DNA from: an uncultured Spirochaetales bacterium
GTDB lineage: Bacteria; UBP6; UBA1177; JAKLFG01
DNA length: 64,000 bases
Assembly (NCBI GenBank): GCA_964415795.1
Contig: CAYQBN010000007.1
Span: 14,546-78,545 of the forward strand
Direction: 5' to 3'
Made by a program: the position numbers and the translations under genes. Shown in pieces: positions 20,899-59,609 of this stretch. Position 1 is the stretch's first letter. Every line of letters starts with the position of its first letter. The notes beneath the pieces are model-generated. The model did no database searches. It worked only from the letters and a program-made list of their open reading frames with translations, and had not been told where the DNA came from.

Positions 20899-20907
20899 GG
20901 AGATCCC

Positions 20908-34511: not shown

Positions 34512-35375
34512 ATGCTGCAGGAAGAACTCCTCAAACAAATACGCCTCATCGACCTCAGGGTCCGTCGGCAGGTCGAATCGTCCCTGCAGGGGTCCTACCA
34601 CTCGCTCTTCAAGGGACATGGACTCGAATTTCAAGAGGTGCGCGAGTACGCCGACGGCGAGGATGCGCGGCTCATCGACTGGAATGTAACGGCGCGCATG
34701 GCAAAACCGTTCGTGCGTGTCTATCGGGAAGAACGCGAACTGACGGTGCTCGTCATCGTGGACATCTCGGCTTCGACCCGTTCCGGGCGCGCGTGGTCGG
34801 CGCGCGAGGTCATGGCGACGCTCGGCGCCGCACTCGCCTTTTCGGCGATACGCAACGGCGACAAGGCTGGATTGCTCCTTTTCAGCGACCGCATCGAGGA
34901 ATACATCCCGCCGCGCCGCGGCCGCAACCATCTTCTCACCATCATTCGGGCGCTCCTTGCCACGACGCCTCACGGGAAAGAGACGCATCCTGATGTCGCG
35001 TTCCGCTTCGTCACCAAGGCGCTCAAGAAACGGTCGCTTCTCTTCTTTCTTTCCGACATGCAGTTCCCCGGGCTTCCAGAGAGCGCTGCCCTTGCCGTGC
35101 GCCGGCACGAGATGATCCCCATCGCCGTCTTCGATCGTCTCGACTACGACACATTCCCTTGGGGAGCGGTCCGGGTCCGCGATCCCGAGCGGAACGGCTC
35201 CCGCATCGTTGACTTCGCTGCGGCTGCGGCATCGTCGTGGCAACGGTTCCGAGAGGACAAGAACGATGCGTTCCGTCGTCTCGACGCGCCTCCCCTGTGG
35301 GTCGAGAATCGTCCCGACTTCATCAACGACCTCGTCGTGGGATTCAAGCGGCTCGCCCGGGAGAGACGACGATGA
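34512..35375 (+). CDS. DUF58-family protein (MoxR partner, VWA-like fold)
   Basis: FQEVREYADGEDARLIDWNVTAR...LTVLVIVDISAST is the DUF58 signature. It starts 6 nt after the moxR stop. Confidence 0.8.
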   Translation: MLQEELLKQIRLIDLRVRRQVESSLQGSYHSLFKGHGLEFQEVREYADGEDARLIDWNVTARMAKPFVRVYREERELTVLVIVDISASTRSGRAWSAREVMATLGAALAFSAIRNGDKAGLLLFSDRIEEYIPPRRGRNHLLTIIRALLATTPHGKETHPDVAFRFVTKALKKRSLLFFLSDMQFPGLPESAALAVRRHEMIPIAVFDRLDYDTFPWGAVRVRDPERNGSRIVDFAAAAASSWQRFREDKNDAFRRLDAPPLWVENRPDFINDLVVGFKRLARERRR

Positions 35376-36241
35376 GGCGCGCGGCACTCGCGAACATCTT
35401 CCTTCTTCTCGCCGCCTTCGCGATCCACGCCGAAACACTGACCCCTACCCTCGAGAAAAGTACGCTCTTCTTCGGCGAACCGGTGACGCTCCTCATCCCG
35501 GTCGCCCCCGGGGAAACGCTTCGCGCCACCGTAAAAGAAGAGGACAAGAACTTCGCCGTCATTCGTACCGAACCAGCTGATGGAAAGATACGCATCGTCC
35601 TCTCGGCGCTCGAGACCGGATCATTCACGACGCCGCCCCTCATCCTCTTTGTCGATGGGAGATCCTACGAAATCGCACCGGTCGCCGTGACCGTCACCCC
35701 CAATACGACCGAGGCCGACACGAGCCTCCGCGATATCAAGCCGCCGGTGAAGGCCTTCGAGACCGACTATACGCTCCTGTGGGTGCTCGGGGCGATCACC
35801 GTCGTCGCCCTTCTCCTGTTCCTGTTCTGGCGCCTCTCGAAACGACGGCGGCGCGAAGCGACGATCTCGGCGAGCGAGAAGACCCCGTACCAAGTGGCCC
35901 TCGAGTACCGGCGCCGTGCTGAACAGCAACTTCAGGAGATGGACTACGAGGCCTTCGCCGACACGGTGACGGCGGGATTGCGCCATTACCTTGAACTCGT
36001 GAAACACCGTCCCTTCCTCGAGATGACGACGGGCGAGATACGGCGTGTCCTCAAGAAAACCGATATCTCGGCCGAAGAGGCGGAGCGGATCGTCGCCTTC
36101 CTCTCCGATGCCGACCGCTTCAAGTACGCCGACGAGCCCCTTTCGAGCGACCGCTTTTCGGCTCTTCTCGACGAGTTCTCTCGCATCGTGGACAAGATCG
36201 AACGAACGCGGAGCGTCTCGACCCTGCCGGGGAACGGCTAA
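35372..36241 (+). CDS. hypothetical bitopic membrane protein (third gene of the MoxR/DUF58 module)
   Basis: Starts at ATG 35372, overlapping the DUF58 stop (ATGA). It has a signal peptide MRRAALANIFLLLAAFAIHA, a periplasmic domain of about 120 aa, a TM helix WVLGAITVVALLLFLFW, and a cytoplasmic domain of about 140 aa. Confidence 0.45.
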   Translation: MRRAALANIFLLLAAFAIHAETLTPTLEKSTLFFGEPVTLLIPVAPGETLRATVKEEDKNFAVIRTEPADGKIRIVLSALETGSFTTPPLILFVDGRSYEIAPVAVTVTPNTTEADTSLRDIKPPVKAFETDYTLLWVLGAITVVALLLFLFWRLSKRRRREATISASEKTPYQVALEYRRRAEQQLQEMDYEAFADTVTAGLRHYLELVKHRPFLEMTTGEIRRVLKKTDISAEEAERIVAFLSDADRFKYADEPLSSDRFSALLDEFSRIVDKIERTRSVSTLPGNG

Positions 36242-37512
36242 CCGTCCTTCTGACACAGGCGAGCAAGGTCCTCGAAAAAGGCAGGGTACGATTTGGCGAC
36301 CGCGGAGGCGCCGCGTATCGTGATCGGGCCAAACCGAAGCGCCGCTATCGCCACCGCCATGGCGATGCGGTGATCACCACGGGCATCGAGGGTTACCGTT
36401 CCATTGTTTGGCCGCACCGCGAGTGACGGAATCACAAGGTCATTTCCTTCTATTTGTATCTGTGCTCCCATTTTGGAAAACTCTTCTTGAAGCACCGTCG
36501 CACGATCGCTCTCTTTGTGGCGAAGGCGGGAAACGCCGGTGAGCCGCGAGACGCCGGAAGCAGTGAGCGCAAGCGCCGTGAGCACGGGGAAAAGGTCGGG
36601 CGCATCGGTGAGATCGACAGTGAATGAACGGAGCGGCCGCGCGGTGATGGTAATCTTTCCCTGCCCGCATTCCACCCGAGCACCTGCCTCACGCAACACC
36701 TCGAGCACGAGGCTGTCAGCCTGTCGAGAAGGAATCGAAAGCCCCTGCACGGTGACAGTTCCCGCGACCGCACCTGCCACGAGCAACGCCGCCGCGCTCG
36801 ACCAATCACCTTCCACCACATAGTGACCGGGCCGGTACCGCTGGCCTCCCGGAATGATGAACCGATCGCCCTCTTCCCATAGTACGGTGATACCGAACGA
36901 GGCGAGGACATCGAGAGTCATCGCCACATAGGGGCGGCTCGTGAGACCGGCGACCGTAAGTACCGAATCTTTCTCGGCACAGGGAAGCGCCATGAGAAGG
37001 CCGGTGAGCCCCTGAGAACTGATGCTTCCATCCACCACGGCTTCTCCGCCTCGCAACGGACCATGCACGGTGATCGGCGGAAAACCGCCGGCCGTCTCGC
37101 ACCGGGCGCCGAGCGTCGCAAGCGGCGCCACCAGCATCGAAACCGGTCGTTTGAGAAGCGATCCCTCTGCAGTAAGCCGCACCGATTGGTCGGCAAGCGC
37201 AGCGATTGGAGCGAACATCCGGAGTGCCAGTCCCGACTCACCACAGTGAACGGGCGTACCCGAGGGGACAAGACCGCCACGTATGACAAGCCTCTCCTCC
37301 TGATGAGATATGACCCGTGCACCGAGGGCGACCGCAGCACCGAGCGCCGCGCGCGTATCGTCACACAGGCCCCCGGCGGTTAGTACTGTCTCGCCGGCGG
37401 CAAGAAGCGCCGCCGCGGTCGCGCGCTGAAAGTAGCTCTTCGAGGGGGGAGCAGTAACGGCGCCGTTGACCGTCCCCGGAACAATAACCACCGGAGTATC
37501 GTCCACGCTCAT
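36238..37512 (-). CDS. aroA: 3-phosphoshikimate 1-carboxyvinyltransferase (EPSP synthase)
   Basis: 424 aa. PPSKSYFQRATAAALLAAGETVL corresponds to the LPGSKS...R motif. The two-domain enolpyruvyl-transferase layout is present. Confidence 0.8.
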   Translation of the reverse strand: MSVDDTPVVIVPGTVNGAVTAPPSKSYFQRATAAALLAAGETVLTAGGLCDDTRAALGAAVALGARVISHQEERLVIRGGLVPSGTPVHCGESGLALRMFAPIAALADQSVRLTAEGSLLKRPVSMLVAPLATLGARCETAGGFPPITVHGPLRGGEAVVDGSISSQGLTGLLMALPCAEKDSVLTVAGLTSRPYVAMTLDVLASFGITVLWEEGDRFIIPGGQRYRPGHYVVEGDWSSAAALLVAGAVAGTVTVQGLSIPSRQADSLVLEVLREAGARVECGQGKITITARPLRSFTVDLTDAPDLFPVLTALALTASGVSRLTGVSRLRHKESDRATVLQEEFSKMGAQIQIEGNDLVIPSLAVRPNNGTVTLDARGDHRIAMAVAIAALRFGPITIRGASAVAKSYPAFFEDLARLCQKDG

Positions 37513-38574: not shown

Positions 38575-38698
38575 TTCAGCCAGTCGTTCACGGCGCTTAC
38601 TGTAACGCGAGAACACACAAAAGCAACCACCCCGATGGACCATCCGAGGAAGATTTTTTGACAACAGCACTGTTTTTCGGAAAATAAAACATTGTCTG

Positions 38699-39790
38699 AT
38701 GGAGAGTCCTATGGAAAGCGAGCGAAAATTCCGGCTGGTCAACGACGAGCGGATCTACACCTTCGAAGAGATTGCAGAAAAGATTCTCTCCGCAGAAATT
38801 TCGTGTGACACCCTTATCTGGGAGCCGGCACTTCCCAACTGGGTGAAGGTCTGCGATTATCCCGATTTTACGGAAGTGCTCGCCGAGCGGGAGCGTCTCG
38901 CCCAAGAGGCGCTTGCCAAGGCGATGGGCACCGATAAAGAGTCGATCGAACGAAAAGAGATGAGATCCCTCTTCGAGGATGTCGAACGCGAGAAACAGCG
39001 CCTTGCGTTCTCTCATACTCCATGGCTTCGCTGGACGGTGACCGTGTTCGCCTGCACCGCGATGATCGCATCGACCGCCAAGTTCCTCTATACGCTCTTC
39101 TACACCACGGAAGGACAACAACTTCTCGGGACCGTCATTGAAGACGTGCCGGAAGAAACGATAGATATCGAAAAGGTTCGCATGGCATCGGGCGTTACGA
39201 AGCTCGACGAAGTGAAGGGCATCACCATCAAGAAGGTCGAGAAGAAGCAGGAAAAGGACCTTCTTGCCGTGGTTATCGCCGAAATGAAAGCTGAGGAAGA
39301 TGCCGAAAAGAAACAAGCCTCCGCTCCGAACGCCACCGCAAAGGAGGAAAAGAAAAAACTGGTCAGTCTCTTCGACAAGGTCTCTGACGAGGAAGTGGAG
39401 CAGTTCCGCCGCGCGCTTCTCGCAAAGACCGGCTATAGCGGCTCGAAGAACGCTATCGTGAAGGACAATGCCGCAAAAATGGCGGCGCTTCCCGAGGAAC
39501 TCTCCTCGAAACAGGTCGCAGCGGTCGTCAAAGAACACTCGAACTCGACCATCGCCTACTGTTACAACAAGTCGCTCAAACTCGATGCCTCGCTTTCAGG
39601 TAAACTCGAGGTGACCGTGAGCGTCCTCGGTAATGGCCGCGTCGCCAAGGTCGAGACCACCACCCAAAAGTTCAAAGGAACCAACCTCGAGCGCTGCGTG
39701 AAGGACCTCATAAAGAAAAAGTGGGTCTTTCCCGAATTCAATGGGACCGTGACCGAAGTAACAATACCGTTCGTGCTCTCGTCCGAATGA
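38699..39790 (+). CDS. GltJ-like membrane protein: N-terminal GYF-like (DUF4339) domain, one TM helix, low-complexity K/E linker and C-terminal AgmX/PglI (TonB-C-like) domain
   Basis: The GYF-like end reads YTFEEIAEKILSAEISCDTLIWEPALPNWVKVCDYPDF. The TM helix is WLRWTVTVFACTAMIASTA. The C-terminus STIAYCYNKSLKLDASLSGKLEVTVSVLGNGRVAKVETT...LERCVKDLIKKKWVFPEF...VTIPFVLSS matches the AgmX/PglI C-terminal domain consensus. Confidence 0.55.
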   Translation: MESPMESERKFRLVNDERIYTFEEIAEKILSAEISCDTLIWEPALPNWVKVCDYPDFTEVLAERERLAQEALAKAMGTDKESIERKEMRSLFEDVEREKQRLAFSHTPWLRWTVTVFACTAMIASTAKFLYTLFYTTEGQQLLGTVIEDVPEETIDIEKVRMASGVTKLDEVKGITIKKVEKKQEKDLLAVVIAEMKAEEDAEKKQASAPNATAKEEKKKLVSLFDKVSDEEVEQFRRALLAKTGYSGSKNAIVKDNAAKMAALPEELSSKQVAAVVKEHSNSTIAYCYNKSLKLDASLSGKLEVTVSVLGNGRVAKVETTTQKFKGTNLERCVKDLIKKKWVFPEFNGTVTEVTIPFVLSSE

Positions 39791-40425
39791 TCCGTTCCGC
39801 AGGCAATAACGGAGAAACACTGAGCATGTCGGCGCACCTCAATGACGAACGAGAACTCGTTGCTGCGGCACGTGCCGGTGACGTGCGCGCTTTCGAGACA
39901 CTCGTGCGACGCCACTATGCGACGCTCTACCGTTTTGCTCTGGGAATAACGCATGGAAACGAGGCTGAGGCAAGCGATCTTCTCCAGGAGGCGCTCGTCA
40001 AAGCCTTCCTCGCGATGGGCTGTTTCGAGGGAAGATCGAGTTTCCCTTCATGGCTCTGGCGCATCATTCGGAACGAATATACCGACCACCTCCGGCGAAC
40101 CCATGGGGAATCTACCCCAATCGACCAGATCGAACACCTTCCCGATCATAGCGAAGACCCTGAAGAGGCCGCCCTCGCCGAAGAACGGCGACAGATACTC
40201 TGGCGCCTGCTCGCCGCCTTACCGGAGATCTTTGCCGACGTCATCATCCTCGTGGAGATCATGGGCCTCTCTTACGAAGAAGCAGCCGAATATCTTGGGA
40301 TTCCGATTGGATCGGTACGGAGCCGTCTTTCCCGAGCCCGCGAGCGACTCGCCAAACTGGCGGCACAAGAACGGGAACTTTTTACGCGGCTGGCGCGTCT
40401 TACGGAACGAGGAGGTCGGGTATGA
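39787..40425 (+). CDS. ECF (sigma-70 family group IV) RNA polymerase sigma factor
   Basis: Region 2 reads LYRFALGITHGNEAEASDLLQEALVKAF. Region 4 reads ADVIILVEIMGLSYEEAAEYLGIPIGSVRSRLSRARERL. The ATGA overlap with the upstream gene puts the start at 39787. The alternative ATG at 39826 is also possible. Confidence 0.85.
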   Translation: MIRSAGNNGETLSMSAHLNDERELVAAARAGDVRAFETLVRRHYATLYRFALGITHGNEAEASDLLQEALVKAFLAMGCFEGRSSFPSWLWRIIRNEYTDHLRRTHGESTPIDQIEHLPDHSEDPEEAALAEERRQILWRLLAALPEIFADVIILVEIMGLSYEEAAEYLGIPIGSVRSRLSRARERLAKLAAQERELFTRLARLTERGGRV

Positions 40426-41057
40426 AAGACGAACGAAAAAATCAGGCGGAACGGCTCGTCGCCGACCTCCTTTCTTTTTCGAAGCTCCCCCAGAAACCGC
40501 TTCCCGACGATTTCGAAGCGACACTTCATCGGCGGCTCGTCGAAGCGGCGGCGACACATCCTCGACCGAAACAAGAAAGCAGTTTCCGCCTCATGATGCG
40601 GCCGCTCTTCATCGCAGGAGCATTCACCGCTGTGTTCTTTCTGGGTCTCATGATCGGGCGGATGCTGCCCGCTCCCCGCACTGTCGAACCTGAGCAGATA
40701 CCGCTCGCTGATCGGAGCACTCCGACACCGGCACCAGTGGTTGCCGCGAAGACAGTGGTCCAGCGCGGTGAACCGGTCACCATTCGCCTTGTGTACGAAT
40801 CGGCGAAAGATATTGAAGAGGTACGCTTTACCGTGGTGCTCGATGAGGGGGTTCGTTTCCGCGCGAACGATCCCGATATCGCGTCACAGCGCGAATTGGC
40901 ATGGAAAGGATCGCTCACCGCAGGACGCAACGAGATACCAATCGTCGTGACGGTGGAAGAGGCGGGAGAACGCACCATTCGCGCCCTTGCCCAATTCAAC
41001 GGTACCACACTCGAACAGGTGGTCACCCTCGTCGCCAAGGAGACTCCTCATGCGTAG
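40422..41057 (+). CDS. putative anti-sigma factor (single-pass membrane protein)
   Basis: ATGA overlap with the sigma gene stop. It has a cytoplasmic N-terminus of about 60 aa, a TM helix LFIAGAFTAVFFLGLMIG and a periplasmic domain of about 130 aa. The position and topology are typical of ECF anti-sigma factors. Confidence 0.5.
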   Translation: MKDERKNQAERLVADLLSFSKLPQKPLPDDFEATLHRRLVEAAATHPRPKQESSFRLMMRPLFIAGAFTAVFFLGLMIGRMLPAPRTVEPEQIPLADRSTPTPAPVVAAKTVVQRGEPVTIRLVYESAKDIEEVRFTVVLDEGVRFRANDPDIASQRELAWKGSLTAGRNEIPIVVTVEEAGERTIRALAQFNGTTLEQVVTLVAKETPHA

Positions 41058-41331
41058 CCTCGTCCTCATAGGGTTCTTTTTCCTTCTCTTCCCGCTCTTC
41101 CCTATCACGGCGGGCGATCCGGCAGTGGTTACCCCTTCGACCGAGATCGAGCCGGGAAAGGAGGTCCCCGACTGGGAAGCGCGCTTCCAAAAGCGGGAGG
41201 AAAAGAAAGAGGACAAAGAGCAACGCAGGGAAGTGAGAAAAGAACGCAAGCGCGACGAAGCGGACGAAAAGCGCGAACAAAAGAAAGAACAGCGCCGCGA
41301 GATGCGCAAAGACCATCGCGAACACCGGTAG
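41050..41331 (+). CDS. small secreted highly charged (K/E/R-rich) protein
   Basis: Overlaps the anti-sigma stop by 8 nt. Signal peptide MRSLVLIGFFFLLFPLFPITA|GD, then FQKREEKKEDKEQRREVRKERKRDEADEKREQKKEQRREMRKDHREHR. The composition resembles the 24018 and 51008 proteins. Confidence 0.4.
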   Translation: MRSLVLIGFFFLLFPLFPITAGDPAVVTPSTEIEPGKEVPDWEARFQKREEKKEDKEQRREVRKERKRDEADEKREQKKEQRREMRKDHREHR

Positions 41332-41343
41332 GAACCGATTCTC

Positions 41344-42336
41344 ATGCCGTTCCGCGCTCTGATACGATCTTTCATGCTTATCGTGTCTCTTATCTGCTTT
41401 TCCCCTCTCCTCCCTGCTGCATCACTCGAAGGAGACATCGCGTTCGGGGGTTCCTACAACACCAACGCAGGACTTCTTTCGTCGGATGAGCTTGCGGCGG
41501 CAGACCGCGTCGCCCGAACGAACCGCGCTTTCGGCGCCGATCTCGACGCCCTGCTCTCCCTCTCGTTCACCGACCTTTTCGCTATCGAATACTCCCTTTT
41601 TACCACCGTTACGCCGCCCGACATCACCTCCTCGTTCTGGTATCACTCACTCGCCTTTTCGTTTTCACATGAACTTACGGAGGTAGACATCGAGTACGGC
41701 ATCGAGGTTGGTCATCTCATGATCGGTTTCGAGAATCGTACGATCGATCCGCAACTGTTCCTGAATCTCTTCTGGTACGCCGACGACCACCTTTCCTACT
41801 ACCTCACATCTTCCCTCTCCTATGTGGTTGGACTTTCCGAGACCTACGACTATTTCACGGCGCCGGGTGGCCGCATCGAGAACGGTATCTACTGGTATCC
41901 GGTCTCCGAGAATCGCAGTTTCCTTTCACTCGGCATCGGAGAACGGCTTTTTTTCTTCGGTGAGGAGTATCTCGCCCCCGAGGAGGATCTTCCGCCGGTG
42001 TGGTCACAGCACGGTTTTTCCGAGACCTATGCTCGGCTCAAGGGGAAATTCTTCTACGAAGGATTCAGCGCTGAGGCGGTAGCACGCTACGGCCTTTTCT
42101 ACTACCTTGCCAACGACCGCTGGACCCTCAAGGGAGGTACTTATACGAAGCGGCGTATCGATCACACGATCCGACTGAAAGCAACGATCGAATACCGTTT
42201 CACCGATTTCTTTTCTCTCCTCGGCTACTACCAGTACCAGCGCCTTTTCTCCTCGATAGGAACCGAACCGACCGACTACCACGACCTTTCCTACGATCAG
42301 CACCTCGCGGGAGCCATGGTGCGATTCGTGTTCTAG
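41344..42336 (+). CDS. putative outer-membrane beta-barrel protein
   Basis: Signal peptide MPFRALIRSFMLIVSLICFSPLLPAAS. The sequence is aromatic-rich with alternating amphipathic strands, and the C-terminus ...AMVRFVF ends in Phe as is typical of OMP beta-barrels. Confidence 0.5.
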   Translation: MPFRALIRSFMLIVSLICFSPLLPAASLEGDIAFGGSYNTNAGLLSSDELAAADRVARTNRAFGADLDALLSLSFTDLFAIEYSLFTTVTPPDITSSFWYHSLAFSFSHELTEVDIEYGIEVGHLMIGFENRTIDPQLFLNLFWYADDHLSYYLTSSLSYVVGLSETYDYFTAPGGRIENGIYWYPVSENRSFLSLGIGERLFFFGEEYLAPEEDLPPVWSQHGFSETYARLKGKFFYEGFSAEAVARYGLFYYLANDRWTLKGGTYTKRRIDHTIRLKATIEYRFTDFFSLLGYYQYQRLFSSIGTEPTDYHDLSYDQHLAGAMVRFVF

Positions 42337-42348: not shown

Positions 42349-42390
42349 AAAATCTTCTCAAAAAGAAGGGCGGGCCCGAAGGCCCGCCCG
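42349..42390. terminator. bidirectional rho-independent terminator
   Basis: GGGCGGGCC-CGAA-GGCCCGCCC is a perfect 9-bp GC stem at 42367-42388. It is flanked by an A-run on the plus strand, which is a T-run for the convergent minus-strand giant gene ending at 42416. Confidence 0.6.
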
Positions 42391-42415: not shown

Positions 42416-45400
42416 TTACAAGGTTCCGGTAAAGAAGGTGCGGAGCTCTTCGACGAGCGGGTTGCCGTCGGTCCCGTGGACACCTTTCGTAACGACCACG
42501 CCGTACCGCACGCCCGGCGCAAAGGTACTGGTAGCGGTGAAGCGGACGACCGGGTAGCCGTCCACCGTTTCAAGGGTAAAGGCGCCCGCCAGTACGACAC
42601 CGGTCTCGACTTCGTAGATGAAGATGGTCGTTTCGTCGGCCGTGAGCATGTCTATCGCCTCGGAGAAGTAGAGGTCTATCACCTGCCCGCCCGCAAGGTC
42701 TATGTCGGCACAGAGCGGCACGGGTCCGAGATCGTCGCCACCGACGGTATCGAAGGCACTCGTGAAATCGGCGCCAAGCATGTTGCCGGCAAGGTCAGCA
42801 ACTGTCCCCGCAACGGTGAGCGTGTAGACGGTCTCGTCGTGGAGATCGTTCGGGAGCGGGACGAAGGTGATGCGACGGTAGGAGTAATCGAGCGCCAGAC
42901 AGCCAAACACGTCGTCCTCGGCATCGGCACCGCAGGCAGGCGGGGTGTCGCGGGTCACCCGGAACGATCCGTCGCTGGAGGTGGTGCTCCGCGTAATGGT
43001 CGCCACCCCGAGCGGCTCGCTTGCGGCAATCCGTACGGTGGCGTTCACGCTGACACCGGCCGCGAAGTTGGCGGGAGAAACCGAGACGATCACCGGCGGC
43101 GTCTCTTCGACCTCGAACGAAACGGAGTAGGGAGCCGCGAGCGCGTTGCCGGCAGTATCAGTGATGCCGTCCATGGTGAGCGTGTAAGGATTGCCATACG
43201 AAACAAGCGGTGCGTTCGGTCTGATAACCACGAGCGTGTTCGTCACGCTGATCGTGGCGCCTATTGCCGTCCCATCGGTATCGGTGAGCGTCACGGTACT
43301 CCCCATCACGAACGAGGCAGGATCGACCGGTTCATTGAAAGAGACCATAAGCATCGTCCACGAGGCGATACCGGTCGCGCCGGCAAGAGATATCCATGCA
43401 CCCGCCTCGTCCTGCCCGAGAGCGCCGGCAACGGTGGGCACCGTGGTCTCGACCGTATAGTTCCGCACATCGTCAGGGTCGGTAGAAGCGATCGTGTAGA
43501 TGTTGGCGATCTGGTTCTTGCGGATCGTCAGTCTGACATCACCGGCACCCGCCCTCAGGAAACGGGTCGGATAGATCTCGGCGATATTACCGCTCTGTTC
43601 GGGAACAAAGTAGAGGGTAAAAGGCACCTGATCGATGAGCCGCCACGAGAGGCCACTCTGATCCGCCGCGAACGGTCGATCGAGGATCGCGTGCGTCTCG
43701 TCCACGACCGTCACGATGGTGCGGCGACCGTTGTTCCCCGCCGTTCCGGAGCCGTAGGTCTCGATGACTTTCCCCTCGTCGCCAGCGGCGAATGTTCCTG
43801 CGGTCCCAACGGTGAACGAGGGGCTTCCCGCCACCACGGTACCGTTGGTACCTGACTTATTAATTTGATCAAGATATACCGAGTACTCGTTGATACTCGC
43901 CGGTGCCATACTGTACCTGTGGTTGGAGCCGCCGTCAGGCCATTTGATGGTAAAGTGCTGATCGCCCCTTACTACGCTTCCGTCAGCCGGCGAAATGTTG
44001 AGTGTCCCATTAGGGGTGATGGCCGTCGTTGCGGGAGCATTACCGATGTCTCCCCATGTCTTCGAAGCGGCGATGACCGGGTTGCCCCGGTAATCCCATA
44101 CGCCACTCGTCACCGAGAGGGTCGCGTCAACCGCCCCATTGACGAGCGCCGGCATCGGTATCACCATGAAGCTCAGCGGCTGGCTCGAATTCACCGCGAA
44201 CAGCGCCGAGTTGATCTCCGATCCCTGCACCAGATAGATCGTCTCGTGGGTCAGACTATCACGATAGAGGGCTCGCGACGAGATGATGAGTGGATTCTCA
44301 AGGACATTGGTCGCCGGTGCATCGGGCGAGAAGCGGAGATGGGTCTCGGGACTCGTGTAGAAGAGGTACCGCGAGATGCCGGCGAAGGGGTTACCGTTCG
44401 CGGCGCGCAGGAAGATCGAGGTATTGCGGTAGGTACGTCCCTTGATGATGAGCCGGTGGTAATCGCGATCGTCGGTGATGCGCCACCGGATGTCGCTTTC
44501 ACCGACGGCGAAGGTGGTGTCGGTGGTGAGGGTGTTCGCTGCCTCGTTCACGCCGGTGATGAGAACTCGCCGCGTGTTACCCGACTGAAGACCGTAGAGG
44601 AAGAGGTACTTGCCCAGATCACGGTAGGTCGCGACCCGGTAGTTATCGCTGGTCGTCGGTATCGTGACCACATTCGATCCCGCCGTCACCGAGGCATGGA
44701 AACCGAGGTAATCGCTGTGATGTATCAGTTCCTTAGCGTGGGTCACATGGATCTCGGTGTCCTCGTTCTCGACGGTGATCGTAAGATCGGCGGGGTTCCA
44801 GTAACGCGCCCAGTTGAGATCGGTCACCGAGGCGCTGAAGGTGACGCCGCTCAGCGTGACGGTCCGATCGTCGATGACCGTTTCGATGAGGTAGAGCCCG
44901 TCGTTCTCTTCCGTGCCGAAGATCTCTATCATCTTGCCTTCGTCGCGCCCGAGGAGGAAGGTGCCCCGCTTGGCGACGGCAAATTGAGAGGATGCGGCGG
45001 TCACCGCACCGTCGATCCCCCGATCGTCCTCGAGGAGAAGGGTGTCGCCGTTCGCCGAGGTCGGGTCTATCTTTTCACGGAAGGAAATGACGAATTCGGC
45101 ATTGACCGGAACCTCGTCGGCACCGCTCAGGTTGGTGAGCCCGACGACCGCGTTGCGGTACTTGACGCTGAGGATCGCGATGCTCGGCGGCGTCGAGAAG
45201 GTGTGCAGGAATTCGTCGCCGCCACTCATCGCTTCCACATGGAGCGGGTTGTCGTTCCAGTTCGCGTTGCGGATGTAGGTAGAGACATGAACGGTGAACT
45301 CGGTGTTGAGCGGCAGGGAGAACTGGGGATCTCCCGACTTCTCGCCGCACGAGTAGAGGGCATAGATGTCGGGAGTGAAGGTGGCGACGGTGCACCCCGC

Positions 45401-48400
45401 ATTGGTGCTTGTGTCACAACCGATATTCCATGTTATCGTTCCGGGAACGACTGTCGTTCCACCGAACTCGTTTTCGTAGGTGACATAGAAGGTGCCGCCG
45501 TTCACCGAGGCGACATCCACGTCCTCGCGGAAGTAGGCGTCGATGGTGAGCGCATCGAGGTCGTCGCTATTGTTGACCACCACATAGAGGAGCAGACCGG
45601 CGGTGCCGGTGTGGAAGGTGGAGGTATAGAATCCGGTGAGCGTGCGTCCATCTATGTCCTGGATGTCCCGCGAGACGACCACTGTGTAATCGCTGTCGGG
45701 CATGAGCGTACTCTTCGGTTTGAGCGTCGCCACCGTCTCACCAGCGGTCCACTGGAGGTCTATCTCTACTGCCAACGGGTCGGAACAGTCGTACTGAACG
45801 CCCGGCAACAGGCAGATGTTGGGGACGATGCCATCGGCGTCGGCGCCAAGGTCACTTTCGACGCTCGCCGTATTGACCGGCGCGCTGAAGGTGACGGTCG
45901 GCATCACATCGAGCGGCACACCGTTCGCGCCGTTGGGAGGATAGATGAAAGCCACGAATTCACCTTGCTTGGCGGTGTGGAACGAGAAGGTGTAGGCAGG
46001 CGACGCGATGCACCCGTCATCGCTCGTGTCACCGGGCGTCTTGTCGGGAGAGCAGACGCCGTCGGCGCCGCCATCAATGGTCACCGTATAGTCGGTGTCG
46101 TAGCAGAGCGCCTCGGGGTCGCAGTCTGCATCGTCCGGCGCGATCTGTATCGTCACCGAGGCCGGATCGGCACAGGTTATCGTCGCGGCGAGTTTCTGAT
46201 TCGGATCGCTCGTCGTTCCCTTGTTGACGAAAAGGGTGGCGTCGGTGATCGTGGCACAGGCGGCCGGCTGGTTGAAGGTGATGATGATCGGCAGGTCGGG
46301 ATCGAAGGCGGAAGAACCGGCGGCGTTCGAGGAAACGACAAAGAGCTTGTCGAGGTGCTCAGTGCCGAACCCAAACGCGAACGGCGGTACGAGGTATCCC
46401 TGCGTCGGGTCGTTGGGATTGACCGCTCCACCTGCCGCTCGCTCGTCTCTCACATCGCTCGTGAGATAAACGAGGAAGTCGCGGCCGTAGCCGAACTCGG
46501 CGTCGGCGGTGAAGGTGACGGTCGCGTTCCCCGGAATGCAGTCCCACGAACCGCCCACCGGATCGCCCGGAGCGACCGGGTCAGTAACGAAGGTGCCATC
46601 ATCGTAGGTGACGAAAATGTTCTGGTCGTTTATCGTCGTGCAGTCTGGGGCATAGTTGAAGGTAACCGTTATCTGGGTCGCAGTGTGCGGCACATCGCGA
46701 TTGTCGTGGGCCGGCGAGGTTGCGATAACGCGCAGTTCTTCGAGCCGTTCCACCTCAATGAGGAACTTCGTCTCGAGCGAATGTTGCCCGCCGCGTACGG
46801 TGGCGCGATCCGATTTCACGACATTCGCCGTCGGATCGTCGGAGCCCGGTATCGTGACGCGGATGAGCGTGCCATACTGATAGGGCGTTTCAGGCGTAAA
46901 GGTCATGAAGATGTCGTCTCCGATGAGCTCGGCGTTCACCGGCGCATCGTCGGCATTGTAGGTAAGCGTCCCCGCGATTGGACCGTGAGCCGGGTCGTTG
47001 AGCGGATCGGCAAGACCGGTGACATCCTCGACGATGACCGTCTCCCCAAGCACCGCCGACGACTGGCGAATCCCTTCAGAGAAGCCAACGATGATGGTAT
47101 CGGTGCGCGGTATCGTGAAGTGGCCGCTGCCAGTGCCGATGGTGACCACGCCGAGCGGCGGCGGATCCATCGTCGAATAGCGGAAGGTGTAGCCGCCGCG
47201 GAGGTGCCCCATGAGCGGATCGGCATGTTCGTTGACCAATTTAGCCTCGGGGGTCGCCACCGCATCGGTAAGCGTCACCACCACATCACGGCTATACTTT
47301 ATCGGCGTATCGGGGACAATGGTGATCGAGGTGTCGCCCTCTGCGCAGGCAGGAGTTATCGTTGCCGGGATCGCAGCACCAGGCACCTCAGGATCGGTCG
47401 TATCGAAGGCAAGGGTGACCGTCGTCCCCAGAACAAGCGTTGTGCAATCAACCGCTCTATTGAAATTGATGGTAATGGAACCATCTATCGGCTTGCCTTT
47501 CTCGCCATCGCCGGGGAAGGTTCCAGTCACGATGAGGTCAGGCGTGGTCTCACTCTCGAAGAGATAGGTGGTCGTGATCGGCAACTGGCCGCCGCGATCG
47601 GTTGCACGGTCCGATTTCACGACATTCGCCGTCGGATCGTCGGAACCGGGCCAGACCACGCGTACCACAGTACCATACGGAAGCGGTTCCGCCAGTGTGA
47701 AGGTAACGACATTATCATCACCGATGAGAGAGGTACCGAGCGGCGCATCGTCAGCGTTGAACGAGACTGATCCGACAATGGGACCATGTGCCGGATCATG
47801 CAGCGGGTCGGCAAGACCAGTGACATCCTCGACGATGATCGTCTCTTCAGGAATCACTGTATCCTGAGCGACCCCCTCCGAGAAGGTGAACACGAGCGTA
47901 TCGGTGCGCGGCATCGGCAGGATACCGGATCCCGTCGTCGCCGATACTATCGAGAGAACGAGCGGATCCTGCATTCGGAAGAGGTAGGTGAGCGTCACCG
48001 GCAACTGACCGCCGCCGTCGGTCACGCGGTCGGACACGACAAGGCCGGTGAGTGGATGCACCGTCTGGTCATCACCGCGGAGCGTGATGCGAATGAGACG
48101 CGAGTAGTCAATGACCGAAAGCGGCGTCACCCGAATGGTCGTGTCAGCACCGGTGAGATACCGGTCATCCCAGTGGATGGTGTCCCCAGCATCGCCTGCT
48201 GGATCACCGCCATTGTCAAGCCATTCGACTGTGCACGGGATCGCTACGGCATTATCTTCTCCCTCGGTTACATCTTCAATGAGAAGCGCACCGCCCTCGT
48301 CGGCCGCGATTTCTCCATCGCCGTCAACATCTATCTCGCGCTGTTTGACCCCTTCACTGAAAGTGATGACGAACGAGGTCGCATCTCCCGAGTCGGGCGC

Positions 48401-49270
48401 AGTCTCGCGGAGGATCTCCTCGGCAGCACCGGAGGGCGTTATCGAAACGACCGCCACGGCCGGCGGGTTCTTCGTCTTGAACAGCACCACGACCTCTTTG
48501 GGCAGAAAACCACCGCTCGCGGTGGCAACCGGCGTGCGTATCGCCGTGGTGAGCGTGAGGCGTACGAGACGCGAGTAGCCGAAGGGAGCCGCCGGTGTGA
48601 TTGTGAGGATCGTATGGTCCTCGTTCCAAACGAGGCCGTCCTCCGCAGCAAGATCAACCGCCACCGCCGGATCGGCGGTCACATCTTCCACGATGAGACT
48701 TTCTCCCGCGACGACCGACGCCGGATCGACCGGATGGCTGAACACCACGCGGATCTCTCGGTACACGGAGGTATCCCACGCACCGGCCGAAGGAGTGGTA
48801 TGGACTACCATGAGGTCATCGGGATCTATCGTCCGGAAGGTCGCCCGCACCTCAACGGCCAGCTCGCCTCCTTCCGAAGAATCGGTATCAGCCTTGCGGA
48901 TATGTTTGGTGAGAACCATCCGGTAGGTGGTCGAGTAGCCGAAGGGAGAAGCCGGCGTAAAGGTCGCCGACTTTGTCGCCTCGTCATACGCGATCGTTCC
49001 CTCTACTTTGACGGGATTCTCGGGATCGGCGATATTCTCGATAAAAAAACCCTCTCCGTCGGTAACGGTCTCAGGGACTATCTTTTCCGAGAAGACCGCC
49101 GTCACTTTTGTGTCAAGTGCGACCTCGGCACTCCCATCATTGGGAGAGAGATACACCACCCGAAGCGGGTTATCGGCAACCACGACGAAATCCTTGTCGC
49201 CGCACCCGCCGACGAACAGCGTCGCCAGAACGGCAACTACCAGCAGAAGCGCACACGAGAGCGTTTTCAT
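42416..49270 (-). CDS. giant cell-surface lipoprotein (2284 aa) built of many bacterial Ig-like (SbsA/Big-type) domains
   Basis: Lipobox signal MKTLSCALLLVVAVLATLFVGGC|GD. There are repeated modules of about 100 aa with the P.DG...V.....V...FSE.I......T pattern, for example SPNDGSAEVALDTKVTAVFSEKIVPETV. It is Thr/Val/Asp-rich, has no enzymatic motifs, and ends at a rho-independent terminator. Confidence 0.8.
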   Translation of the reverse strand: MKTLSCALLLVVAVLATLFVGGCGDKDFVVVADNPLRVVYLSPNDGSAEVALDTKVTAVFSEKIVPETVTDGEGFFIENIADPENPVKVEGTIAYDEATKSATFTPASPFGYSTTYRMVLTKHIRKADTDSSEGGELAVEVRATFRTIDPDDLMVVHTTPSAGAWDTSVYREIRVVFSHPVDPASVVAGESLIVEDVTADPAVAVDLAAEDGLVWNEDHTILTITPAAPFGYSRLVRLTLTTAIRTPVATASGGFLPKEVVVLFKTKNPPAVAVVSITPSGAAEEILRETAPDSGDATSFVITFSEGVKQREIDVDGDGEIAADEGGALLIEDVTEGEDNAVAIPCTVEWLDNGGDPAGDAGDTIHWDDRYLTGADTTIRVTPLSVIDYSRLIRITLRGDDQTVHPLTGLVVSDRVTDGGGQLPVTLTYLFRMQDPLVLSIVSATTGSGILPMPRTDTLVFTFSEGVAQDTVIPEETIIVEDVTGLADPLHDPAHGPIVGSVSFNADDAPLGTSLIGDDNVVTFTLAEPLPYGTVVRVVWPGSDDPTANVVKSDRATDRGGQLPITTTYLFESETTPDLIVTGTFPGDGEKGKPIDGSITINFNRAVDCTTLVLGTTVTLAFDTTDPEVPGAAIPATITPACAEGDTSITIVPDTPIKYSRDVVVTLTDAVATPEAKLVNEHADPLMGHLRGGYTFRYSTMDPPPLGVVTIGTGSGHFTIPRTDTIIVGFSEGIRQSSAVLGETVIVEDVTGLADPLNDPAHGPIAGTLTYNADDAPVNAELIGDDIFMTFTPETPYQYGTLIRVTIPGSDDPTANVVKSDRATVRGGQHSLETKFLIEVERLEELRVIATSPAHDNRDVPHTATQITVTFNYAPDCTTINDQNIFVTYDDGTFVTDPVAPGDPVGGSWDCIPGNATVTFTADAEFGYGRDFLVYLTSDVRDERAAGGAVNPNDPTQGYLVPPFAFGFGTEHLDKLFVVSSNAAGSSAFDPDLPIIITFNQPAACATITDATLFVNKGTTSDPNQKLAATITCADPASVTIQIAPDDADCDPEALCYDTDYTVTIDGGADGVCSPDKTPGDTSDDGCIASPAYTFSFHTAKQGEFVAFIYPPNGANGVPLDVMPTVTFSAPVNTASVESDLGADADGIVPNICLLPGVQYDCSDPLAVEIDLQWTAGETVATLKPKSTLMPDSDYTVVVSRDIQDIDGRTLTGFYTSTFHTGTAGLLLYVVVNNSDDLDALTIDAYFREDVDVASVNGGTFYVTYENEFGGTTVVPGTITWNIGCDTSTNAGCTVATFTPDIYALYSCGEKSGDPQFSLPLNTEFTVHVSTYIRNANWNDNPLHVEAMSGGDEFLHTFSTPPSIAILSVKYRNAVVGLTNLSGADEVPVNAEFVISFREKIDPTSANGDTLLLEDDRGIDGAVTAASSQFAVAKRGTFLLGRDEGKMIEIFGTEENDGLYLIETVIDDRTVTLSGVTFSASVTDLNWARYWNPADLTITVENEDTEIHVTHAKELIHHSDYLGFHASVTAGSNVVTIPTTSDNYRVATYRDLGKYLFLYGLQSGNTRRVLITGVNEAANTLTTDTTFAVGESDIRWRITDDRDYHRLIIKGRTYRNTSIFLRAANGNPFAGISRYLFYTSPETHLRFSPDAPATNVLENPLIISSRALYRDSLTHETIYLVQGSEINSALFAVNSSQPLSFMVIPMPALVNGAVDATLSVTSGVWDYRGNPVIAASKTWGDIGNAPATTAITPNGTLNISPADGSVVRGDQHFTIKWPDGGSNHRYSMAPASINEYSVYLDQINKSGTNGTVVAGSPSFTVGTAGTFAAGDEGKVIETYGSGTAGNNGRRTIVTVVDETHAILDRPFAADQSGLSWRLIDQVPFTLYFVPEQSGNIAEIYPTRFLRAGAGDVRLTIRKNQIANIYTIASTDPDDVRNYTVETTVPTVAGALGQDEAGAWISLAGATGIASWTMLMVSFNEPVDPASFVMGSTVTLTDTDGTAIGATISVTNTLVVIRPNAPLVSYGNPYTLTMDGITDTAGNALAAPYSVSFEVEETPPVIVSVSPANFAAGVSVNATVRIAASEPLGVATITRSTTSSDGSFRVTRDTPPACGADAEDDVFGCLALDYSYRRITFVPLPNDLHDETVYTLTVAGTVADLAGNMLGADFTSAFDTVGGDDLGPVPLCADIDLAGGQVIDLYFSEAIDMLTADETTIFIYEVETGVVLAGAFTLETVDGYPVVRFTATSTFAPGVRYGVVVTKGVHGTDGNPLVEELRTFFTGTL
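46790..48010 (-). repeat. near-identical intragenic tandem duplication (801-nt period, core of about 400 nt) inside the giant Ig-like gene
   Basis: A DNA stretch of at least 35 nt (tccgatttcacgacattcgccgtcggatcgtcgga) recurs exactly at 46810-46845 and 47611-47646. The protein copies read ...IVEDVTGLADPLHDPAHGPI...PGSDDPTANVVKSDRATDRGGQ and ...IVEDVTGLADPLNDPAHGPI...PGSDDPTANVVKSDRATVRGGQ, spaced 267 aa apart. Confidence 0.6.
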
Positions 49271-49287: not shown

Positions 49288-50076
49288 TTAGTATGTGTAC
49301 TTGTATCCCACGAGCACCATCGCTCCCCCGATATCGCCGACCTCTTTGTTGAGGTGCGGGTAATCGAAATCGAGGAAGAAACCGGAGTGACGATACTCGA
49401 CCGTGACGCCGCCCCATGGCAGGAATCGGAACTCGAGGCCGGCATACACCACATAGCCGAAGGCGACATCCTCGGCAAAGGTGTTACCGCCGAAGAGGTC
49501 ACCGTTCGAACGCGCCCAGACAGTAGAGAAACCGACGCCTCCGATGAACACGAGCCACTGGAGCGGCTTATCTATCTCCACGGCGGCACCCACGGTAACA
49601 GGTACCGAGTCTATGACCCACGAGTAGTCATACAGCCCTATCTGCGGGTCAACCTGCGTCCCTTCTCCCGAAAGGCGGTACCATGCGGCGTCAACGCCCA
49701 CGGTGAACCACGGGTTCATCCACGGGAGAATGTAACGGACATCGAGGTGGGCGCCGAAACCGGGATTCACCCGGGCGATGGGCGCCGTCATATCGGCCTT
49801 GACCGCGACACTGACATAGTGAAGCGACGGTTGTTGCGACTCTTTGTCTTTTTTGACATTATCCTCTTCTCCCCCTTTTTTCTCTTTCTTCTCTTCTGCC
49901 AGCGGAGCAGCAGGAAGGGCGGTCGCGGGGGGTTCCTGCGGGCTTACCTCGCTCCCCGTTGCCGGGGCCACCCCGGAAGAGTCACTACTGGGCCCCGCCT
50001 CGGTCGTACTCTCTTGAGCAACCACGAAGAGCGGAATGACGAGAAATGACAGGAACGATAGCCTTCTCATCTGCAC
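49288..50076 (-). CDS. outer-membrane beta-barrel protein (OmpW/OmpA-like small barrel)
   Basis: Signal peptide MQMRRLSFLSFLVIPLFVVAQE, then an acidic/K-rich linker, alternating strands and a C-terminal ...VLVGYKYTY. Confidence 0.55.
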   Translation of the reverse strand: MQMRRLSFLSFLVIPLFVVAQESTTEAGPSSDSSGVAPATGSEVSPQEPPATALPAAPLAEEKKEKKGGEEDNVKKDKESQQPSLHYVSVAVKADMTAPIARVNPGFGAHLDVRYILPWMNPWFTVGVDAAWYRLSGEGTQVDPQIGLYDYSWVIDSVPVTVGAAVEIDKPLQWLVFIGGVGFSTVWARSNGDLFGGNTFAEDVAFGYVVYAGLEFRFLPWGGVTVEYRHSGFFLDFDYPHLNKEVGDIGGAMVLVGYKYTY

Positions 50077-50082: not shown

Positions 50083-50826
50083 TCACTGCGCTGTTGTCGA
50101 GAAACGGATTATCACATCATCTCCGAGCGGAATGCCCCCCTTGTCGGTGATGGTACCCGCCACGAAGATCGTGTAGGTGTGGAGAGGAAGCAAGGGGCGA
50201 TCCATCGTGAATCGAGCGGTCAGAGTATCCTCATCGTAGGAAACGCTACCGTCCGTGTCGCTCACGAGGAAGGTGGCCGGCGTGATGGTCGCTGCAGCCA
50301 TCGGCTCAGAGAAGACGACCTCTATGACCGAGAGATCGGGTGCTACCGTTTCTCCGTCCGCAGGAGCCGAAGAAACAACTGCGGGTGGCGTCGCACGAAT
50401 CGAGAAAGTAGAAACGAACAGTGTGTCCACGCCCCCGAGATCGAGGGGGATACCATCCTGGTCCTGTATTTGGCGTGTCACCTCCACGGTATAGGTCTTC
50501 CCCTCCCCAAACGCCGATGACGGGGTCGCCGTTGCCGAAAGTGCATCTTCCGAGACCGCCACGCTCGCCGCCACCTCCCGTCCCTCCGCGTCCTGAATGC
50601 GGAGCGAATAGGGAGTCACCGTCGTCGGATCAATGGGCCTCGTAAAAGTGACCGTCACCACCGCGTCGGATACGACATCAACGGCACCGTCAGCCGGCAC
50701 CACCTCCGCGATCTGGGGAGCCACCGGATTCTCTTCGCCGGTCGGCGAATAGGGCGGCACACAGGCGATCAAAAAAAGAGAGAGCACTAACCACACCATA
50801 CGGATCATAGCCTTTTTCCTCTTCAT
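50083..50826 (-). CDS. Ig-like domain lipoprotein (two SbsA_Ig-type domains)
   Basis: Lipobox MVWLVLSLFLIAC|VPP. Two modules match the Ig-like pattern (VVPADGAVDVVSDAVVTVTFTRPIDPTTV and VVSSAPADGETVAPDLSVIEVVFSEPMAAATI). Confidence 0.6.
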   Translation of the reverse strand: MKRKKAMIRMVWLVLSLFLIACVPPYSPTGEENPVAPQIAEVVPADGAVDVVSDAVVTVTFTRPIDPTTVTPYSLRIQDAEGREVAASVAVSEDALSATATPSSAFGEGKTYTVEVTRQIQDQDGIPLDLGGVDTLFVSTFSIRATPPAVVSSAPADGETVAPDLSVIEVVFSEPMAAATITPATFLVSDTDGSVSYDEDTLTARFTMDRPLLPLHTYTIFVAGTITDKGGIPLGDDVIIRFSTTAQ

Positions 50827-51007
50827 GGAACACCTCCCTCGAGGTCCTTCGCTGAAGAAATGAATACTCTCAATTGTAGGACGTTTCCAGAAAAAAAAAA
50901 GTTCCCTACTCCCTCGTCAAGGACCCGTCGGGAACTTTTCCTTTACTCTCTTCGTCTTATGGGCGTGACGAGTAACCGCCGATAAGGAAAAGAAAAAGGA
51001 GGATGCC

Positions 51008-51460
51008 ATGAAAAGGATCGTCGTGCTTGTGGGGATCGTAGTGTTCATGTTGTCGCTCGGTCTTAAAGCTCAGGAAACGACCGAGCCGGTGAAGGAGCAG
51101 AAGAAGGTTGAAGAAAAACAGAAGGAAGAGACCAAGAACGCTGGCGAGGAACAGCAGCTCCGCGAGCGGGAACGGGTGCGCGAGCATCTAGGGACCGGCG
51201 AAGGGAAAGCCCCCGGGGATGAGAAAGCCATGGCCCGCGATCAGAAAGAGGAAAAGAAGGCTCTCAAAGAGGAACAAAAGGAACAGAAGCGCGAGATGAA
51301 GCAGGAACAGAAAGATGCCAAGAAGGAAATGAAAGAGGAGATGAAGGAAGAGAAGAAGGAGATGAAAAAAGAACAGAAAAAAGAGTGCAATGAACTGAAA
51401 AAACAGCAAAAGAAGGAACACAAGAAGGATTCCGACAAAGGTTCCTCCGAAGGGAAATAA
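51008..51460 (+). CDS. small secreted K/E-rich LTXXQ (Spy/CpxP-like) family protein
   Basis: Signal peptide MKRIVVLVGIVVFMLSLGLKA|QE, then about 125 aa of KEEQKEQKREMKQEQKDAKKEMKEEMKEEKKEMKKEQKKEC... It is a paralogue of the 24018 protein. An AAGGAGG RBS precedes the ATG. Confidence 0.4.
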   Translation: MKRIVVLVGIVVFMLSLGLKAQETTEPVKEQKKVEEKQKEETKNAGEEQQLRERERVREHLGTGEGKAPGDEKAMARDQKEEKKALKEEQKEQKREMKQEQKDAKKEMKEEMKEEKKEMKKEQKKECNELKKQQKKEHKKDSDKGSSEGK

Positions 51461-58228: not shown

Positions 58229-58268
58229 TAATGAATTTTCTCATCATCCCTGTAACATTTCGTGGAGT

Positions 58269-59596: not shown

Positions 59597-59609
59597 TCGT
59601 CGTCTCCGC

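Follow-up and report, generated by a model that had tools for sequence, protein, structure and literature searches.

The locus at positions 38699–42336 of a 64,000-nt stretch of DNA from an uncultured Spirochaetales bacterium (hereafter the window) raises the question of whether five genes packed end to end belong to one system. The first of them (gene 1) encodes a membrane protein with a GYF-like domain, a transmembrane (TM) helix and an AgmX/PglI C-terminal domain, an arrangement reminiscent of the gliding protein GltJ. The other four, referred to here as the cassette, encode an extracytoplasmic function (ECF) sigma factor, an anti-sigma factor, a small secreted protein and an outer-membrane beta-barrel. 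The initial annotation of the window described all five as a hard-wired, translationally coupled system. Our comparison with related loci leads to a different answer: the GltJ-like gene beside the ECF operon is a clade-specific juxtaposition and not a new gliding or focal-adhesion-coupled system. The five genes probably represent two independent units lying end to end, namely a four-gene ECF cassette and gene 1, a lineage-wide, stand-alone inner-membrane protein with its own conserved sigma-70-type promoter.

The evidence that separates the two units comes from their distribution among loci of relatives (L001–L042), which were fetched independently of the window. Most of these loci are fragments of metagenome-assembled genomes (MAGs), and a gene described as absent is absent within 6–10 kb. 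The cassette comes directly after gene 1 nowhere but in the window, L010/L014 (84% identity), L027 (92%, partial) and L006/L007 (73%), so that gene 1 identity is 73–92% wherever the cassette adjoins it, and this adjacency is missing in about 13 of the 17 species genomes that carry gene 1. At 70–72% identity (L008/L015, L016, and L018), what lies downstream of gene 1 is a convergent, unrelated ECF/zf-HC2 pair. At 63% identity (L001/L017 and L028) the place is taken by a convergent ABC-F gene, and at 37–44% identity (L003, L004/L026, and L019–L025) by radA, which begins ~5–20 nt downstream on the same strand. The radA pairing seems to be the older arrangement. The cassette, in turn, occurs as an intact set of four genes without gene 1 in L011/L012, L013, and L037–L040 (50–54% barrel identity) and, at greater distance, in L041 and L042 (33% and 27% barrel identity, respectively), making at least nine cassette loci without gene 1. 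One MAG (GCA_964412895.1) holds gene 1 (L008) and the cassette (L013) on different contigs. The proposed five-gene system is therefore not supported, because gene 1 and the cassette adjoin only in one shallow clade. Gene 1 does not consistently co-occur with an ECF sigma gene, having radA, ABC-F or other neighbours elsewhere, and the cassette often stands without it; an unconserved neighbourhood was also the outcome that the initial annotation itself had named as counting against its proposal.

Two further observations concern the genes found beside gene 1 in other clades. The ECF/zf-HC2 pair of L008/L015, L016, and L018 lies ~100 nt downstream of gene 1 and consists of an ECF sigma factor that is 33% identical to that of the window and a 268-aa (amino acid) zf-HC2 anti-sigma factor; gene 1 thus adjoins an ECF pair in two clades, but the kind and orientation of the pair differ. 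The radA gene beside the distant gene 1 homologues encodes a zinc ribbon, a RecA-like ATPase domain and a Lon-like domain.

Gene 1 shares the architectural type of GltJ without being GltJ itself. Its C-terminal domain exceeds the cutoff of the AgmX/PglI model NF033768 (72.5 bits versus a cutoff of 40, residues 269–360), and NCBI names its relatives as AgmX/PglI C-terminal domain proteins. The GYF_2 domain, which starts at about residue 20 of the 363-aa form, is sub-threshold in the window copy (21.8 bits versus a cutoff of 25.8), but GYF_2 is matched by all 21 members of the gene 1 family (best 1.1e-7). The family profile also matches the structure of the GltJ GYF domain (PDB 7z3c) with an E value of 0.016. 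In the family alignment, the single TM helix (residues 105–131 of the 359-aa form) has a basic N-side and an acidic C-side, which indicates an N-in topology. The helix is not conserved in sequence across the family; conserved features include a periplasmic stretch (…SGV..D..KGI…) and two invariant cysteines in the C-terminal domain. When aligned with hhalign, the core of this domain shares 31% identity over 45 columns with residues 171–216 of E. coli TonB; Pfam TonB_C yielded no match on gene 1 at E ≤ 0.1. The domain searches recover the GYF domain, the one TM helix and the AgmX/PglI domain of the GltJ-like architecture described earlier. The GltJ equivalog model NF033761 scores only 55.3 bits against a cutoff of 450, in an alignment limited to the C-terminal ~150 residues, and neither gene 1 nor its family alignment has a Cys4 motif N-terminal of the GYF domain, where there is too little room for a zinc ribbon.

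In GltJ (AgmX) of the Myxococcus xanthus Agl-Glt system, a zinc ribbon and a linker precede the GYF domain, the TM helix, a disordered region and a TonB-C domain, and the C-terminal domain of GltG is likewise TonB-C (PMC11135422; PMC11761067). Gene 1 shares the GYF domain, the TM helix, the disordered region and a TonB-C-like AgmX/PglI domain, but lacks both the zinc ribbon and the MglA-binding linker, and its product is ~360 aa long as opposed to ~670 aa. Whereas GltJ is tied to Agl, Glt, and MglA genes, gene 1 has radA, ABC-F or an ECF pair as neighbours, and the window ORFs (open reading frames) scanned include no agl/glt genes, no mglA or MglA-like GTPase genes, and no ExbBD/TolQR/AglRQS-type motor. 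Like TonB, gene 1 encodes an N-in protein with one membrane pass and a C-terminal domain, but it lacks a Pro-rich spacer, carries an additional GYF domain, and has no ExbB/ExbD genes nearby. Bacterial proteins in which a membrane module comes after an N-terminal GYF domain are common, and their partners vary (PMC11135422). With 21 clusters among 5.8 billion sequences, the gene 1 family is a small one; its members come from uncultured MAGs labelled ‘bacterium’, ‘Spirochaetales’ or ‘Sumerlaeota’. Upstream of its homologues in L010, L006, L008, L016, L001, and L003, with or without a cassette, we found a TTTGACA-spacer-A/T-rich element, which resembles the putative sigma-70-type promoter of gene 1 in the window (Table 1).

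The gene models themselves are sound. All five ORFs of the initial annotation (38699–39790, 39787–40425, 40422–41057, 41050–41331, and 41344–42336) are present in the window, and a public protein collection holds exactly these products (359/363, 212, 211, 93, and 330 aa), encoded on a 155-kb contig. The junctions described between them can also be read in the sequence, as ATGA at 39787–39790 and at 40422–40425, an 8-nt overlap at 41050–41057 and a 12-nt gap at 41332–41343; comparison with relatives weakens two of the four. In its database form, gene 1 starts at 38711 with GGAG 6 nt upstream, 12 nt downstream of the position given earlier, and 38711 is probably its start. For the sigma gene, a GGAG that is retained in L010 and L027 lies ~11 nt upstream of an ATG at 39826, and the sigma gene of L006, where the ATGA lies out of frame, begins 31 nt past the gene 1 stop codon. 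Since the sigma gene more likely starts at ATG 39826 than at 39787, as judged from these alignments, its translational coupling to gene 1 is doubtful. The ATGA at 40422 is peculiar to the window, and in the six relatives whose junctions were read the sigma stop codon lies ~9–11 nt ahead of the anti-sigma ATG. The robust junction is the overlap between the anti-sigma and small-protein genes, which is kept at 8 nt in L010, L006, L011, L013, and L041 and is 11 nt in L033, and which suggests translational coupling of these two genes.

The domain reading proposed earlier holds for each of the five products. The sigma factor matches Sigma70_r2 (1e-16), Sigma70_r4_2 (5e-16), and TIGR02937 (115.6 bits versus a cutoff of 42.9); with sigma-2 and sigma-4 regions only, and no region 3 match in the Pfam/NCBIfam scan, it is strongly supported as a plain ECF sigma factor. 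The protein encoded directly after it has short cytoplasmic helices, a TM helix at residues 61–79 and a periplasmic domain, and this position and N-in, single-pass topology are found in all cassette loci. It aligns end to end with an L042 protein that matches zf-HC2 at 1.3e-12 and with an L033 protein that matches it weakly, and by this homology it is a predicted anti-sigma factor. The H-x3-C-x2-C motif of zf-HC2 does not occur in the window protein or its close relatives; in L042 and L033 it sits in an insert that is missing here. The periplasmic domain is probably a beta-sandwich, as it gives weak matches to families of that fold (Wzt_C in 7 of 10 members, plus bMG10 and BatD). A word-indexed search with the anti-sigma factor returned only close relatives annotated as hypothetical, and PDB profile searches with the anti-sigma and barrel alignments returned nothing meaningful.

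The third cassette product is a small polyampholyte with a signal peptide, a conserved G-x3-P-D-W-E-A-R-F motif (EVEPGKEVPDWEARF) and a tail rich in K, E, and R, much as had been described. Its sequence and motif are kept in L010, L006, L011, and L013, and related forms occur in L041, L042, L033, and L003. It has no match in Pfam or NCBIfam, and we accordingly dropped the idea that it might be a Spy/CpxP-like or Skp-like chaperone. The last product has a signal peptide and an invariant C-terminal RFVF, and structure prediction confirms its earlier assignment as an outer-membrane barrel: the model is a closed antiparallel barrel of ~14 strands and ~300 residues that ends in an aromatic beta-signal. 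A single-sequence AlphaFold model of the barrel was uninformative (pLDDT, the predicted local distance difference test, 33.8), and a metagenome scan with a narrow barrel alignment recovered only relatives of at least 50% identity. None of the cassette proteins has the marks of TonB-dependent signalling that we looked for, namely Plug, STN or a TonB-box region in the barrel and a FecR domain in the anti-sigma factor. The anti-sigma, small-protein, and barrel genes persist as a trio down to 23–27% barrel identity, and in L033 there is no sigma gene immediately upstream of the zf-HC2 anti-sigma gene.

Other genes accompany the trio in particular loci. In L033, the most distant trio, which lies on an AT-rich contig, a TonB-dependent receptor gene with a Plug domain (2862–3410) follows the barrel gene. 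Between the barrel gene and a convergent giant Big_5 gene, L011 (4360–5271) and L040 (9038–10015) carry an inserted gene for a lipoprotein that is rich in Asp, has cysteine-rich repeats and matches DUF4215 weakly. The same two loci encode, divergently from the sigma gene, a 466–477-aa protein (L011 124–1557 and L040 4888–6288, both on the minus strand) with a signal peptide, an N-terminal coiled coil and a …KLTF end. This protein has no Pfam match and looks like a porin with a coiled-coil extension.

A second line of evidence connects the cassette to a candidate promoter motif. We first noticed it as two divergent copies between the Big_5/CopC lipoprotein gene and the 150-aa K/E/Q-rich protein gene that lie beyond the cassette (Table 1). 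The pattern GGAACTT-N15-CGTC has three exact matches in the 64-kb window, against 0.05 expected, and each of them is 22–53 nt upstream of a start codon; one lies in the last codons of the sigma gene. ECF promoters usually carry AAC in their −35 element and CGT in their −10 element. The copy in the sigma gene is kept as GGAAC-N17-CGTC in all ten cassette loci of the 50–100% range, nine of which have the strict GGAACTT. Across 441 kb of non-redundant sequence from the window and the loci, all 13 strict matches are cassette-associated and none occurs elsewhere. ECF promoter motifs are specific to ECF groups (PMC7826278), and from its position and distribution we infer that the motif serves as a promoter for the sigma factor of this cassette.

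Codon usage and the more distant loci bear on the same point. The in-gene copy always uses GAA-CTT and CGT, yet CTT otherwise accounts for 16% of Leu codons and CGT for 13% of Arg codons in these genes, and both the 17-nt spacer and the residues it encodes vary between loci. L042 has GGAAC-N17-CATC before the sigma gene and again before the anti-sigma gene. In L041, GGAAC-N17-AGTC lies where the sigma gene ends; the sigma operon is preceded by GGAAC-N17-CGTC and a 90-aa K/E-rich gene by GGAAC-N17-CGTCTTAC. A related form of the motif accompanies the distant cassette of L003, and in L041, L042, and L003 the motif runs partly past the sigma stop codon. GGAAC-N17-CGTC stands ahead of all three K/E-rich genes, that is, the 150-aa gene of the window and its counterparts in L011 and L041. 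In L011 the copy at 50931 has an exact counterpart. A different candidate for the promoter of the sigma gene, GGAAC-N15-CGTG in the KGTNLERCV codons at the 3′-end of gene 1, was rejected because it has a different spacing and is not retained in L006. In L011, L040, and L037 the sigma gene has its own putative TTGACA-N17-TAT(G/A)(C/G)T promoter. The two divergent −35-like elements at 50880–50956 also form an inverted repeat (AAAGTTCC…GGAACTTT, ~25 nt apart), which is kept in L011 though the sequence between the arms differs, and which could act as an operator or a hairpin.

Together these observations suggest how the cassette may work. A sigma-70-type promoter would drive the sigma gene, in the window probably that of gene 1 by read-through. 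Gene 1 would then be an operon neighbour of the cassette by position and not one of its components, because the sigma gene has no promoter of its own in this clade and is probably read from the gene 1 promoter. The anti-sigma factor would keep the sigma factor at the membrane. Once released, the sigma factor would transcribe the anti-sigma, small-protein, and barrel genes from the motif in its own last codons (…E-L-F…R…), and its transcription of the anti-sigma gene would create negative feedback. It would also drive the operon of the Big_5/CopC lipoprotein, an outer-membrane protein and a 2284-aa Big_5 lipoprotein (the adhesin operon), as well as the 150-aa K/E-rich gene, both of which are predicted members of its regulon.

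Several points weigh against this combined account of two units and a cassette regulon. Gene 1 and the cassette have remained adjacent across their clade though the upstream flank has changed, and L003 has a cassette on the opposite strand, separated from gene 1 by 7 kb and eight unrelated genes; a loose functional link between the two units may therefore exist. The window anti-sigma factor lacks the zf-HC2 segment, and its binding to the sigma factor is a prediction. The transcription starts, and the co-transcription of gene 1 with the sigma gene, are likewise predicted from sequence features. Because the motif pattern was chosen with the intergenic copies already known, the enrichment test is in part post hoc, a weakness offset by the retention of the motif in independently fetched loci. 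In L011 the motif on the adhesin side, at the same place as the copy at 50880, reads GGAAC-N17-CATC and so ends in CATC rather than CGTC. Finally, control of the adhesins may be clade-specific, because the adhesin operon is not beside the cassette in L037, L039, L041, and L042.

Within the cassette, it is quite possible, if short of probable, that sensing is the joint task of the small protein, the barrel and the periplasmic domain of the anti-sigma factor; otherwise the first two would be outputs. This reading is suggested by the trio, which stays intact down to the lowest identities, by the gene overlap, and by the small protein's motif, which resembles a docking peptide. The closest competitor holds that the cassette is a sigma/anti-sigma pair with two outputs, the small protein and the barrel having an envelope-protective or structural role and the anti-sigma periplasmic domain sensing alone. 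Envelope proteins are common in ECF regulons; the anti-sigma, small-protein, and barrel genes lie behind an ECF-type promoter-like motif, as would be expected of induced products, and the second K/E-rich secreted protein with the motif, of 150 aa, looks effector-like. However, the trio and its overlap are kept even in L033, where no sigma gene lies immediately upstream, which is easier to reconcile with a physical complex than with interchangeable outputs, and the invariant G-x3-PDWEARF motif resembles a docking peptide. We regard a role purely as outputs as doubtful.

It is improbable that the motif is not the cognate promoter, in other words that the in-gene copy reflects coding constraint, that the intergenic copies belong to another ECF sigma factor, and that cassette and adhesins are unrelated. 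The in-gene copy does encode a conserved E-L-F and R, genomes of this kind may encode several ECF sigma factors with similar AAC/CGT promoters, and the adhesin operon is not always adjacent to the cassette. ECF sigma factors average ~10 per genome (PMC7826278). Against this, the synonymous positions stay fixed at minority codons throughout the loci even as the spacer changes, and in three loci the motif extends beyond the stop codon. All strict matches are cassette-associated, and L042 and L041 also have the motif at the place classical for autoregulation, ahead of the sigma gene or its operon.

Least likely of all is a single trans-envelope system of five genes in which a TonB-like gene 1 energises or scaffolds the others, as TonB does in FecA-FecR-FecI: the gap of at most 35 nt without a terminator between gene 1 and the sigma gene, the lone sigma-70-like promoter upstream of gene 1, a junction kept in four relatives with differing upstream flanks, the proximity of the two units in L003 and the TonB-C-like domain all speak for it, but energising of the barrel by gene 1 was rejected on the distribution data and the class of the barrel, and neither the anti-sigma factor nor the other window ORFs scanned supply the FecR domain, motor or MglA-like gene that such a system would lead one to expect.

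The four roles of FecI-FecR-FecA signalling (a TonB-like protein, a sigma factor, an anti-sigma factor and an outer-membrane protein) can, on paper, all be assigned at this locus. Nevertheless, FecA-type TonB-dependent transducers have 22 strands and Plug/STN domains, whereas the cassette barrel is predicted to have 14 strands and has neither domain, the anti-sigma factor has no FecR domain, and the TonB-like gene is not a conserved neighbour. The cassette is thus not a case of FecIRA-type signalling. It is closer to ECF modules whose envelope or outer-membrane proteins may contribute to regulation, such as SigX-CfrX-CmpX-OprF (PMC7826278). Like that module (ECF102) and sigmaE-RseA-RseB, the cassette combines an ECF sigma factor, a membrane anti-sigma factor and envelope or outer-membrane proteins with an AAC/CGT promoter. 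It differs in that its small protein and 14-strand barrel fall in no Pfam or NCBIfam family, its anti-sigma periplasmic domain is uncurated, and, in this clade, the sigma gene has the putative sigma-dependent promoter at its end instead of in front of it. A more speculative reading, which we put forward only tentatively, is that the cassette represents an undescribed, phylogenetically scattered trans-envelope ECF signalling device. The barrel, the PDWEARF protein and the anti-sigma beta-sandwich would link the outer membrane physically to the inner one, in a chain that reports the state of the cell surface and switches on giant surface adhesins, with the feedback −35 element placed in the C-terminal E-L-F codons of the sigma gene.

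This compact cassette is uncurated; neither Pfam nor NCBIfam has a model for its barrel, its small protein or the periplasmic domain of its anti-sigma factor. The present comparison supplies it with a candidate promoter that is sharply defined and with a testable regulon, short but including a surface protein of 2284 residues. Motifs of this sort are among the few means of tying a regulator to its targets from sequence alone in uncultured lineages, and a feedback promoter in the last codons of a sigma gene would be a tidy example of dual coding. The comparison also corrects a tempting over-reading of a GltJ-like gene next to an ECF operon.

Table 1. Features of the cassette locus and the neighbouring adhesin operon in the window.
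Feature	Position	Strand	Basis or remark
Sigma-70-like promoter of gene 1 (TTGACA-16-GAAAAT), putative	38658..38685	+	Sole sigma-70-like site found in 38400-42500
Gene 1, GYF + TM + AgmX/PglI C-terminal domain	38711..39790	+	NF033768, GYF_2, 7z3c profile match, hhalign to TonB
ECF sigma factor	39826..40425 (alternative start 39787)	+	Pfam/TIGR matches; start from alignment with relatives
ECF-type promoter-like motif GGAACTTTT-N13-CGTC	40374..40399	+	Last sigma codons, 22 nt before anti-sigma ATG
Anti-sigma factor, predicted	40422..41057	+	End-to-end alignment with L042 and L033 zf-HC2 proteins
Small secreted polyampholyte protein	41050..41331	+	Signal peptide, conserved motif; no Pfam/NCBIfam family
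Outer-membrane beta-barrel, ~14 strands (predicted)	41344..42336	+	Signal peptide, invariant C-terminal RFVF, structure prediction
Intrinsic terminator of adhesin operon, predicted	42368..42389	-	9 G-C pairs, T-run on minus strand only
Giant Big_5 lipoprotein, 2284 aa, last gene of adhesin operon	42416..49270	-	Big_5 in 9 stretches, E 4e-100; lipobox
OMP_b-brl outer-membrane protein, 262 aa, middle gene	49288..50076	-	PF13505 30.6 bits; kept in L006, L011, L040
Big_5/CopC lipoprotein, 247 aa, first gene of adhesin operon	50083..50826	-	Domain scan; kept in L011
ECF-type promoter-like motif GGAACTTTT-N13-CGTC	50880..50905	-	53 nt before ATG of 247-aa gene
ECF-type promoter-like motif GGAACTTTT-N13-CGTC	50931..50956	+	51 nt before ATG of 150-aa gene
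Secreted K/E/Q-rich protein, 150 aa, predicted regulon member	51008..51460	+	Translation; L011 orthologue

The giant Big_5 gene of the adhesin operon is convergent to the cassette in L006, L010, L027, L011, and L040. The hairpin between the two had been described as a bidirectional terminator shared by them, but a T-run follows the stem on the minus strand only, and on the plus strand the stem is followed by GCATCGAGG. It reads as the terminator of the adhesin genes, and what it shares with the end of the cassette is its position. Giant surface proteins recur near the cassette in other loci, but their kind differs and there is none in L041 and L042. L013 (3–5261) and L039 (423–6473) encode giant lipoproteins with Kelch propellers, a C-type lectin domain and immunoglobulin-like domains, immediately upstream of the cassette and on the same strand; a GH9 enzyme gene lies between giant and cassette in L013. 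A protein of more than 2,000 aa is encoded in the corresponding position in L038 (2–6454).

The 150-aa protein contains repeated KKEMKKEQKKE-like units and one conserved Cys and has no family match. An orthologue occupies the same position in L011 (13534–13971), and in L041 a similar gene, that for the 90-aa K/E-rich protein (6761–7033), directly follows the barrel gene.

On the other side of the locus, domain scans agree with the initial annotation that a radical SAM/SPASM gene is transcribed divergently from gene 1; in L006, AhpC and CsgG genes are found in its place. The remainder of the window carries housekeeping genes and pilMNOPQ. Four long ORFs have no Pfam match, at 19741–21567 (−), 32504–33448 (+), 35237–36241 (+), and 54848–55771 (−), the first of which (608 aa) is the largest unannotated ORF of the window. 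An aroA gene at 36238–37512 (−) has a 5-enolpyruvylshikimate-3-phosphate (EPSP)-synthase fold (TIGR01356, 350 bits), and a second gene of the EPSP-synthase fold at 61667–63016 (−) may be murA. The type IV pilus assembly cluster at 55796–61300 (−) comprises pilM-pilN-pilO-pilP and a pilQ-like secretin of 810 aa.

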